Of a stretch of 64,000 nt of DNA, positions 6,001 to 9,000 are shown one piece after another (positions within the stretch are counted from its first letter, which is position 1; the number at the start of each line of letters is the position of its first letter). The stretch is from Escherichia coli. Its GTDB lineage: Bacteria > Pseudomonadota > Gammaproteobacteria > Enterobacterales > Enterobacteriaceae. The stretch lies in assembly GCF_036507355.1 (NCBI RefSeq), contig NZ_AP027877.1. One strand, written 5' to 3'. The position numbers were made by a program.

Positions 6001-9000
6001 GGCTTCTTCGCGACCCCGTGCGCCGGTCCAGTTCGCATATGCCACAGACGCTCGTTGCAGCACATCCAGTTTTGCCTGTTCGACCTGCGAGGCAGAGATT
6101 TTTTGTTGCCCTTCGGCCTGTTGCACCTGGGCAGAAACCGCGCCGCCCTGATACAGCGGCGCGTTAACGTTCAGTTGTAGCTGATCATCCCAATACGAGC
6201 GGTCGCTGGTCTGGTAGCGCGTTTTACCCCCCTGAATACTGAGCGTTGGCCAGTATTGCGCTTTCGTTTTTTCCACGCCGTACTGTGCTGACTGGCGTAA
6301 GTTTTCTGCCGCCAGCACCAACGGGATGGACTGGTAATCAATATTCTTCAGCGATACCGGCTGCTCGGCTAATTCAGCAGGTGGCGCGGCTATCGCCTCC
6401 GGCTGTACGCCAGTGAGCACCGCCAGTTGCGCTTTGGCGCTCGCCATCTGCGCCTGATATTGCTCCAGCGTTGAGCGCATTCCAGCAATACGCGTCTGGG
6501 CCTGTAATTCATCCGACGATGAGTTCAGGCCAGCGTTAGCGCGCAATGCCGCCATGTTGTAGACGTTTTCCAGCGAGTGAATATTGCGTTGAGCCGCATC
6601 GCACAAAGCCTGATAACGACTGACTTCCATGTAGGCAGTCGCCGTTTTCTCTGCAACATCGGTTAAGGTTGCCATCAATTTAAAGCGGTAGCTGTCACGG
6701 GCGGCAGTTTGCAGATTGATATCGTTGTTAGTTTTACCAAAGTCATACACCAGTTGTGTCAGGGTTATGCCATACGAAACGTTGTTATCAAGCCTGCCGC
6801 TGGAGTCCGTTTGTCGGGACGGCCCCGCGTTGCCGGTTAATCCAACGTGCGGATACCAGGCACTTTTGGCTTCATCAATTTGCGCTTCGCCAATGCCTAT
6901 CTGCGCCGCCTGTTGAGTGACGTCGGGATTTCGCGCAAAGGCGCGTAATATACTTTCCTGTAAAGATAATTGGGCAACTGGCGTTACCGCTGGGGCATTC
7001 GCCCATTGTGGCAGCGGTGCAGCAATTGCAGCTTCTCCCATCACCATAAAACTTATAAAAAAAATAAGTCCATTATTTTTACGGTTTTTAAACTGGAATC
7101 GCGCCATAGGTAAGTCACTTCCTTCCAGGTCATTATTTTAACTGGTTTTTATAACCAGTCTCATTTTATTAAGAAGGGTAATAACTTGTGCATCTCTTTT
7201 GTCGATCATTGATATGGGCAAAGAAATGCAGCTAAAAAGCTTATACGTTATTTATTTAGAATACACTACGACTTTTAGATTACCATCATACACATTAAGA
7301 ATAATCCACGGTAATAAGTGATTAGCATCACAGATTTATCGCGTATATATCATTTTTTTGTGACTTATTTATTAAAGGAATAAGAAAGGTAATTTGAATT
7401 AAAGACAAAGGCGCAGTACAGGCAGTACTGCGCGCAGAGAGGTGTTATACGGTTTTATTGCGCTTCATGACCATTGCCACAATAAGGCTGAGTAAGATTG
7501 CACCAATAATCCATATCAACGCACGGCTGCCCTGGGACCACAGGCTGTAGATAAAGCCAACGATCACCAACAACATCACCAACGTACCTACGATAAGAAT
7601 CGGCAACGAGGCGTGAATATCATGACGCAGGCGGATCGCCACCACAAACACCGCCAGATAGCAAATCAAAAAGGTGGCGCTGGCAACGCTGGCGAGTGAG
7701 CCTAAATTTAATGCCGCCGTCATCAGCATAATCAACACCACGACAATGATGTTGCCCCAGGTACTCTGCCGCCACAGGGATTTATTCATTAGCTTCGGCA
7801 GTTCGCGTTCGCTGCCCATGTTGTCCATGATGTTAAACACGGCGAACAGGTTCGCGTTGATGGCTGAAGCCGTCGCCAGTAAAGCGCCGATGACGACGAT
7901 CACATAACCCACATGCCCGAGCAGCGGAGAAGCTGCCTGCGCTACGGCGGTATCGGCATATTTTTCTAACTCTAATGCCGATACATCGCTAAGCAAAACC
8001 AGCGCCAGCGAGATATAAAGCAACGTGGTAACGCCAATCGCCACCAGAAACGCCCGTGGCATAATGACCTGCGGATCTTTCACTTTATCCGCCGCGTTCG
8101 CCATCATGCCAAAGCCCGCATAGGCAAGGAAGGTTATCCCGATACAGGAGAAGAACGCACCGGAGCTAGGGGGCGCAGAGACGGAAATATGCGCCGGTTG
8201 CAGCGACCAGACACCGGCAATAATCAGCAATAACAGGATCATCATTTTAATGCCGACGAGGATCACTTCCAGCCGCCCTACCGCATGGTTGCTTAAGGAG
8301 TTGAAAAGCGTCATCACCGCAATGATCCCCAACGCGTAGAGCAAAATAAGGTGCTCCTCCTGGCTGCCTTCATGCAAAAACTGCACGGCATAAGCGCCAA
8401 AAGCACGGGCGACCATGGCGATGCTCACCGCCAGCGTCAACAGGTACAGTAACGAGAGCGCCAGCGAAAAGACGCCGTTTCCTAATCCGCGACGAAAGAA
8501 GTCGATAATGCCGCCATTGCTGGGATAGCTCGCCCCCAGACGCGCATAGGCATAACCGGAAAACATCGCCACAATACCGCCAAAAGCAAAGGCGACCCAG
8601 GTCGAGGCTTCCATTAGCAACGCAGCCTGCCCCAGCAGCGCGAAGATCCCCGCCCCCACCATTGCCCCAATACCGATGGAAACGACATTCCATAGACCGA
8701 GGGGTTTGTTACCGTTATTACCTTCCGTGTTCATCATGATCAGCCCTTAAACACGTTATAGCCGAGTTGCTTAGCGACCGATGCCACCATTTTTTGACCG
8801 CGAACACTGTTGCCTTCTTCGTCCAGCGGTGGTGAGAACGCGGCAATTCCCATCACTCCAGGGACGACCGCCAGAATACCGCCACCTACACCGCTTTTGC
8901 CCGGTAAACCAACACGATACGCCCAGTCACCGGAGCGACCATACAGCCCTTCCATCATCATTTCGGCCAGAATGTACGGCACGTTGTCGGCCTGAAGAAC

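Follow-up and report, generated by a model that had tools for sequence, protein, structure and literature searches.

A probable activator-dependent promoter and leader region upstream of the O-island 28 secretion operon of Escherichia coli

The O-island 28 operon and its closest described relatives

The 64-kb stretch of Escherichia coli contig NZ_AP027877.1 that was analysed in this study (the window) contains, at 7108-7444, a gap of 337 bp which, according to open reading frame (ORF) calls, constitutes the entire interval between the stop codon of ybaT and the start codon of a TolC-family gene, both located on the minus strand. Judged by its sequence, the locus is O-island 28 of enterohaemorrhagic E. 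coli (EHEC) O157:H7, an operon for type I secretion and a SiiEA giant adhesin. The genes of this island, z0608-z0635 (equivalent to ecs0540-0544), have been named tolC28, rtxA28/rtxB28, hlyB28 and hlyD28 (PMC12758282). Since EHEC O157:H7 reportedly requires O-island 28 to adhere early and to colonise the gut, the control region of the island is of practical interest. Activation of the tolC28 upstream region by RstA has been demonstrated with a lacZ reporter, a 6-fold enrichment in chromatin immunoprecipitation followed by quantitative PCR (ChIP-qPCR) and an electrophoretic mobility shift assay (EMSA) in which the shift was lost without the box (PMC12758282). The promoter given in that study is a BPROM prediction, with a -35 element ATGATG at 7289-7284 and a -10 element GTGTATTCT at 7266-7258. 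Additionally, passages of two citing papers (PMC3978041, PMC12846084) attribute to Yoshida 2010 the control of the promoter upstream of ecs0540-0544 by PhoB. In a published array of EDL933 grown in lysogeny broth (LB) to an optical density (OD600) of 1.5, Z0608 gave a log2 signal of 10.8 in the wild type versus 5.0 in an rpoS mutant (55-fold), the corresponding ratio for Z0609 being 20-fold, and in strain Sakai in glucose minimal medium ECs0540 and ECs0541 rose by 3.5 and 4.1 log2 (11- to 17-fold) between late exponential and early stationary phase. The RstA study of 2025 (PMC12758282) cites neither the PhoB nor the RpoS work. The first-pass annotation of this DNA had proposed a regulatory region at 7108-7444, and this is borne out by the RstA reporter, ChIP-qPCR and EMSA results (PMC12758282) together with the reported PhoB control.

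The locus in the window is the same as that of O157:H7, with a gap that is 99.0% identical, an RstA box of the same sequence at the same position and the same flanking genes. The two strains differ at 3 of the 309 positions compared (7108-7416), one of which, 7163, alters both of the proximal promoter-like matches described below; furthermore, siiEA reads as one open frame in the window strain, whereas the EDL933 annotation gives two adhesin genes (Z0609 and Z0615). The asr gene of E. coli is comparable in being subject to two OmpR-family regulators, namely PhoB-PhoR, as stated in a passage of a citing paper, and RstA, for which it served as the positive EMSA control (PMC12758282). It differs in being an acid-induced single small gene, whereas the sites proposed here abut a terminator and precede a leader of approximately 230 nt and a 25-kb operon, and the RstA box agrees poorly with its consensus (7/12). 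The Pho promoters of pstS and phoA possess an 18-bp box whose 7-bp repeats, separated by AT-rich spacers of 4 bp, recur in an 11-bp phase; the box takes the -35 position and lies 10 bp from the -10, an arrangement that is mirrored at the predicted site here. The predicted box, however, agrees at only 14 of 18 positions, and the TGTCA core is degenerate in its first repeat (CTTTAAT). The H-NS-silenced loci Vibrio rtxA1 with HlyU and the sii operon of Salmonella pathogenicity island 4 (SPI-4) likewise combine AT-rich upstream DNA with a type I secretion and adhesin or toxin operon under dedicated activators. The O-island 28 operon departs from these in that it is expressed in standard cultures and that its TolC-family gene comes first, and we know of no HlyU-like or HilA-like regulator of this operon.

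Order of sites in the control region

With a probability that we put at roughly 0.7, the gap 7108-7444 is the control region of the O-island 28 operon, consisting of a dense activator-dependent promoter and a leader, with an incidental palindrome and with the edge of an old deletion at its ybaT end. Motif matches were controlled against shuffles of the gap region (500 for single motifs and 3000 for the joint search for a Pho box and a -10), and conservation was assessed in an alignment of four E. coli alleles with Escherichia sp. E1V33 and E. whittamii. The features of the region, read along the minus strand, are as follows:

7411-7433, minus strand: ybaT intrinsic terminator hairpin GCGCAGTAC-N5-GTACTGCGC, from a terminator scan and RNA folding, with the tail CTTTGTCTTTAATT at 7410-7397
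7388-7401, minus strand: published RstA box TAATTCAAATTACC, -294 to -280 from the ATG, matching PMC12758282 in sequence and position
7360-7377, minus strand: predicted Pho box CTTTAATAAATAAGTCAC, 14/18 against the consensus CTGTCATAWAWCTGTCAY, a score that 20 of 500 shuffles reach
7344-7349, minus strand: predicted -10 TATATA, preceded by TGA, exactly 10 bp past the Pho box, with a putative start near 7338
7317-7332, minus strand: CRP-like site TGTGA-TGCTAA-TCACT, 12/16 against the extended consensus (19 of 500 shuffles)
7258-7289, minus strand: BPROM promoter of PMC12758282, in a conserved block with invariant runs 7273-7258, 7248-7235 and 7231-7220
7163-7192, minus strand: promoter-like match TGCACA-18-TAAAAT, inside the 35-nt invariant run 7198-7164
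7172-7187, minus strand: predicted anti-Shine-Dalgarno (anti-SD) strand, CCUUCU (7177-7172) and AAGUUAUU (7187-7180), from minimum-energy and consensus folds (z -2.55)
7141-7159, no strand: palindrome ACTGGTT-N5-AACCAGT reported by the first-pass annotation, arms 7141-7147 and 7153-7159, 34-52 bp upstream of the ATG
7112-7126, minus strand: ribosome-binding region GGAAGGAAG and AGUGACUU, predicted partner of 7172-7187, in the invariant run 7143-7111

In the arrangement that we propose, the ybaT intrinsic terminator (7433-7411) would be followed directly by a response-regulator cluster, in which the RstA box (7401-7388) adjoins Pho-like repeats in an 11-bp phase (7388-7360) that include the predicted Pho box, and the -10 at 7349-7344, coming exactly 10 bp past that box, would complete a PhoB/RstA-activated promoter with a start near 7338. 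The putative CRP site (7332-7317) would come next, then the conserved block that contains the BPROM promoter (7289-7258) and, lastly, a highly conserved leader of approximately 100 nt with the ribosome-binding site at its end. The terminator has a 9-bp stem with six GC pairs, beginning 11 nt past the ybaT stop, and its RNA folds at -16.6 kcal/mol (z -4.7), so that a GC-rich hairpin with a U-rich tail is present just after the stop codon; the tail reads CUUUGUCUUU on the minus strand, and its T-tract, CTTTGTCTTT, is interrupted. Both E1V33 and E. whittamii retain the hairpin and have a better U-tract. The geometry of a Pho promoter, with the box in place of a -35 and approximately 10 bp from the -10, was found at the predicted site, and a third Pho-like repeat, CTTTCTTATTC, occurs at 7388-7378 in the 11-bp phase. 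Positions 7378-7365, which include the first half of the Pho box, are invariant across the three Escherichia species, as is GATATATA at the -10 in all six aligned sequences, and a Pho box followed after 9-11 bp by TAnnnn was obtained in only 7 of 3000 shuffles. The half-sites of the CRP-like site are also invariant, and its 6-bp spacer changes from TGCTAA to TTTCTA in E1V33 and E. whittamii.

Counted from a start near 7338, the published RstA box would have its centre near -56, which is a normal position for an activator; with the BPROM promoter as the reference, it would lie upstream by more than 100 bp. This alternative promoter model would thus bring the separate reports on PhoB and on RstA into agreement. 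The box itself agrees with the consensus TACATNTNGTTACA at 7 of the 12 specified positions by hand count, no site in the gap reaches 9/12, and its sequence is not conserved in E1V33 or E. whittamii. Consensus scans of the gap for Fur, RstA, OmpR-like, FNR, ArcA, CpxR, PhoP, Lrp, IHF and H-NS motifs gave either no match or matches at chance level, and a Fis-like 9/9 match at 7128-7142 is equalled in 17% of shuffles. The RfaH ops element GGCGGTAG was not found, the best match on the mRNA strand being 5/8 (in the ribosome-binding region), with 6/8 on the opposite strand in the terminator hairpin. A scan of 6600-8000 against Rfam at a permissive threshold returned two chance-level matches only, both outside the gap, and no small ORF of 20-40 aa lies wholly within a conserved block, the 27-aa ORF at 7138-7221 spanning the divergent positions 7199-7220.

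Several considerations weigh against this arrangement. The second half of the predicted Pho box is without its G in E1V33 and E. whittamii, AT-rich DNA readily matches AT-rich consensuses, and the single-motif controls would place the individual matches at only about the 4% level. The promoter assignment is a prediction, and it differs from the BPROM promoter of the 2025 paper; the Pho box and start site of Yoshida 2010 may also differ from those predicted here. Additionally, the RpoS dependence of Z0608 could come in part from ybaST read-through past the interrupted T-tract, and H-NS may be a major player at this promoter. Our inferences from the sequence concern which -10 is used, which bases form the Pho box and the CRP site, and how the leader folds. 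The control region itself is already characterised and the findings are ordinary and largely known, the promoter, CRP and leader predictions being modest additions that leave the understanding of such systems unchanged.

The edge of the variable segment and the neighbouring genes

The region had also been proposed as an island boundary of horizontally acquired DNA. The gap region was detected by megablast in 958 of the 5422 matching complete E. coli genomes, once in each and always on the chromosome, and no paralogous copy was found elsewhere in E. coli, the 958 carriers having one chromosomal site per genome. In the island-less genomes that were sampled, homology begins at window 7417 (megablast query position 518), which places the following feature:

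7416-7417, no strand: junction of core DNA (7417 onward, in all E. coli) with the variable segment (up to 7416), deletion endpoint in K-12-type genomes, from megablast, K-12 alignments and the ST131 remnant

Of the two arms of the ybaT terminator hairpin, it is the promoter-proximal one that contains this junction. K-12 (DH1) and ST131 carry a 98-bp annotated pseudogene fragment between ybaT and cueR, a frameshifted remnant (97-98 bp) of the last operon gene fused near the ybaT stop, and the K-12 copy aligns near-perfectly, but for a 1-bp deletion, with the 3'-terminal part of the HlyD-family gene from island-bearing strains. Furthermore, the synteny of ybaT and tolC28, the terminator and a gap region that is 81% identical were identified in both E1V33 and E. 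whittamii. The TolC-family homologues of other genera occur in a different gene context. Because of the hlyD-family remnant in K-12 and ST131 and the ybaT-tolC synteny in two other Escherichia, our reading is that the empty allele represents one shared old deletion, ending at 7416/7417, which would have taken the whole operon (approximately 25 kb) from K-12-type strains along with half of the ybaT terminator; the island would accordingly be a locus of long standing in Escherichia that was lost in one event. The edge of a variable segment is therefore real, as the 958 of 5422 carriers and the 7416/7417 junction attest, and it is the insertion site that does not stand, since the edge is a deletion scar. 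Horizontal acquisition is not supported, in view of the remnant in K-12 and ST131, the synteny in E1V33 and E. whittamii, the GC content of the operon genes (0.52-0.60) and the lack of any tRNA in the 64 kb or of any integrase between ybaT and cueR. Of the hallmarks of an integrative island (an integrase, a tRNA or attachment site and flanking direct repeats), neither a tRNA nor an integrase was found at this segment, whose ends are the terminator hairpin and an overlap with the cueR start codon. In the island-bearing strain 48, the HlyD-family stop overlaps the cueR start as ATGA (own-stretch 12505-12508), and cueR thus looks like the last cistron of the secretion/adhesin operon.

In K-12, the equivalent RNA folds at -6.8 kcal/mol (z +0.6), no better than shuffles, and the hairpin is lost; as the deletion took one arm of the terminator, K-12-type strains have no recognisable ybaT hairpin terminator. 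It was also observed that ybaT of K-12 adjoins the hlyD remnant and cueR (K-12 stretch 3985-4028), and read-through from glsA-ybaT into cueR seems possible there. Strain 48 possesses an extra block between ybbJ and cueR (own-stretch 8876-12097) encoding a YadA-like family protein and three hypothetical genes, which is absent from this position in K-12.

The genes on either side of the gap, and the adhesin gene beyond, are as follows:

7445-8737, minus strand: ybaT, an APC-family permease and conserved core gene, from the ORF and the RefSeq annotation of a 99.9% identical genome
5752-7107, minus strand: tolC28/z0608/ecs0540, a TolC-family type I secretion outer-membrane protein of 451 aa, from TIGR01844 (416 bits, cutoff 225), RefSeq and PMC12758282
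1-5649, minus strand: 5' part of siiEA, a BapA-related giant adhesin whose frame runs off the window, from 1883 stop-free codons and NF047714 adhesin_SiiEA (508 bits, cutoff 425)

The best NCBIfam match of ybaT is an amino-acid transporter subfamily, under its curated cutoff. In the 99.9% identical RefSeq genome, siiEA is 20.8 kb in length and the gene order is ybaT, TolC-family gene, SiiEA, type I secretion permease/ATPase and HlyD-family adaptor, with the operon end overlapping cueR. In E. coli SCPM-O-B-8794, tolC28 seems to be without its first approximately 167 codons (own-stretch 3775-4766), and the homologue of E. whittamii aligns as three gapped pieces (own-stretch 4001-5269); either may be a pseudogene or a divergent allele. 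Two contigs binned to metagenome-assembled genomes (MAGs) gave matches that are probably binning contamination, one in a Collinsella MAG with 98% identity to the E. coli tolC28-siiEA region and one in a Bacillota MAG with approximately 57% identity to TolC28.

Alternative accounts of composition, expression and the palindrome

The contention that these approximately 330 bp are strongly AT-rich relative to the flanking genes holds good in a sliding-window GC analysis (0.332 for the gap, against 0.516 for tolC and 0.534 for ybaT), and both of the AT runs that had been singled out were located, at 7251-7284 and 7340-7378. Without the terminator the value falls to 0.297, compared with 0.595 for the 5' part of the adhesin gene and 0.526 for the window, and the lowest GC of the entire 64 kb falls within 7108-7444, with 0.2% of 337-bp windows being equally AT-rich. 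The only other comparable stretch comprises the 337-bp windows starting at 39774-39995 (GC 0.33), which correspond to the core-genome acrB-tomB intergenic region; since this core gap is equally AT-rich, AT-richness by itself is no marker of foreign or island DNA. Second in AT-richness within the window is this long acrB/tomB-hha intergenic region (window approximately 39950-40500), with a GC of about 0.33. Upstream of the TolC-family homologues of Enterobacter, Lelliottia, Budvicia, Rosenbergiella and Trabulsiella, GC is mostly 0.30-0.40 (maximum 0.47), with genes at 0.44-0.60, and AT-richness is therefore a generic property of these operons among the Enterobacterales. No similarity of the gap to the regions upstream of these homologues was detected outside Escherichia. 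The low GC would then be explained by the region being a dense activator-dependent promoter and leader, as is usual for such enterobacterial regions.

It had been suggested instead that the composition marks a xenogeneic promoter, coated and silenced by H-NS and cryptic under laboratory conditions, in which case RstA and PhoB would act mainly by counter-silencing. This account, which we regard as doubtful, draws on about 300 bp at 70% AT (GC 0.30-0.33 against 0.53 for the window), on the activators being of the OmpR/PhoB family, whose members are often counter-silencers, and on the strong sigma-S dependence, which is common at H-NS-repressed promoters. In Vibrio cholerae and V. vulnificus, RTX loci are silenced by H-NS (review PMC12846084). 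A distance of more than 100 bp between the RstA box and the promoter of PMC12758282 would also fit anti-silencing better than contact with RNA polymerase. The best match to the high-affinity H-NS motif, however, is 8/10, a score that 59% of shuffles attain. The window also has core intergenic regions of equal AT content, and with flanking genes at 52-60% GC a filament could span only about 300 bp. The literature search found no H-NS occupancy or hns-mutant data for the locus, and the H-NS ChIP supplements that were examined have no entry for ECs0540 or ECs0541. Nor does the locus behave as recently acquired or silent DNA, given the deletion evidence above and the expression data. A log2 signal of 10.8 in LB at OD600 1.5 and the induction at entry into stationary phase in minimal medium contradict the description as cryptic, with the caveat of read-through, and indicate a regulated, expressed operon. 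The composition makes binding of H-NS plausible, we give such binding about an even chance, and the full model of a silenced and cryptic locus is much less likely than binding alone.

Read-through bears on the stationary-phase signal itself, which might come largely from RpoS/GadX-dependent glsA-ybaT transcription crossing a leaky terminator rather than from a local sigma-S promoter. The published array gives RpoS ratios along the strand of 19 for ybaS, 70 for ybaT, 55 for Z0608 and 20 for Z0609, and since the upstream ybaST, on the same strand, is itself RpoS-dependent, read-through may contribute to the effect at Z0608; the interrupted T-tract CTTTGTCTTT is consistent with this. As an explanation of most of the signal it seems to us improbable, as the hairpin is strong (-16.6 kcal/mol) and the upstream region by itself, in a plasmid lacZ fusion, was both active and regulated (PMC12758282). 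Furthermore, ECs0540 and ECs0541 are among the genes altered more than 4-fold at entry into stationary phase, and ybaS and ybaT are not mentioned in the main text of that report.

The palindrome at 7141-7159 is a perfect inverted repeat, exactly as the first-pass annotation described it, but its standing as a functional site was not sustained. Of dinucleotide-preserving shuffles of the gap, 16-18% contain a perfect inverted repeat whose arms are 7 bp or longer and whose loop is 3-8 nt; an operator would be expected to exceed chance, and this palindrome does not. It sits precisely between the two longest invariant runs (7198-7164 and 7143-7111), and its arms vary at 6 of 14 columns compared with 4 of 83 in the rest of the proximal 97 (Fisher p = 5e-4), being the least conserved part of the proximal region. 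Among island-bearing E. coli, 248 of 958 (about 26%) differ within the 37 bp of 7126-7162, and all seven sampled variants are altered in the 5' arm, four being ACTAGTT (central pair broken, tolC intact) and three ATTGGTT (frameshifted tolC). The half-sites are not conserved in the sister species either, and the perfect repeat is missing both from these and from about a quarter of island-bearing E. coli. In E. coli ECNB21-M121, IS1A has inserted in the loop (own-stretch 2748-3445, corresponding to approximately window 7149), splitting tolC28 from all upstream regulatory sequence. The chance-level repeat, the variable arms and the IS1 insertion together make a protein operator unlikely. What would speak for a dimeric transcription-factor operator, which would cover a proximal promoter, either TGCACA-18-TAAAAT or ATGAGA-18-TAAAAT, at its start site or spacer, is the perfection of the 7-bp arms, the position between or over two promoter-like matches at 34-52 bp from the ATG and a TGGT..ACCA core resembling GntR-family half-sites. 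Those promoter-like matches, though, number 2 against 2.2 expected and were rejected as sigma-70 promoters, both being weakened in O157:H7, where the operon is still regulated; a GntR operator of the FadR or DasR type was likewise rejected, as the 7 bp between CTGGT and ACCAG misfit the spacings of 3 and 4, respectively, of the sites of these proteins. An operator at this site is consequently very improbable in our estimation, and we regard the palindrome as most probably incidental and, at most, as an apical RNA hairpin that is dispensable; it is a site that we would warn against pursuing.

On the mRNA strand, the repeat would form an 8-bp hairpin spanning 7160-7140 (-9.4 kcal/mol, compared with -5.7 in E1V33 and -3.6 in E. 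whittamii), which could be the apical part of a structured leader in which the anti-SD strand pairs with the ribosome-binding region, so that translation of tolC28 might be controlled by, for example, temperature, a small RNA or CsrA. We consider such a leader unlikely, albeit that the modelled fold is the minimum-energy structure in leaders of 96 and 254 nt and in the six-sequence consensus (z -2.55 and -2.8), each of the paired strands falls in one of the region's two longest invariant runs, five of six independent arm substitutions stay paired via G-U on the mRNA strand, and both sister species still have the hairpin as their minimum-energy structure. The outer pairs are all invariant, and covariation is therefore silent on the fold; no compensatory change occurs among the six aligned sequences. 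The five of six compatible transitions have a probability of about 0.11 by chance, which is not significant; the common allele ACTAGTT breaks the central pair with tolC intact, and the hairpin is weaker in the sister species, down to -3.6 kcal/mol as against -9.4 in the window. Protein-binding sites could equally well account for the invariance of the flanks, and transcription of the leader hinges on the position of the start site. Slimmer still are the prospects of the more elaborate proposal, in which a translational switch (7187-7172 with 7126-7112, and a tolerant apical palindrome) would gate the secretion/adhesin programme post-transcriptionally through temperature, CsrA or a small RNA, on top of a composite PhoB/RstA promoter whose -10 (7349-7344) lies approximately 90 bp upstream of that in the literature.

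Two minor observations concern this proximal segment. Position 7163 is T in the window strain and C in O157:H7, converting the -10-like element to TAAAAC and weakening the overlapping -35-like ATGAGA, a lineage-specific change in the otherwise invariant 35-nt run. Additionally, the strains YDC107, YL3 and E21, which carry the ATTGGTT allele, have tolC28 annotated as frameshifted, suggesting a decaying lineage.

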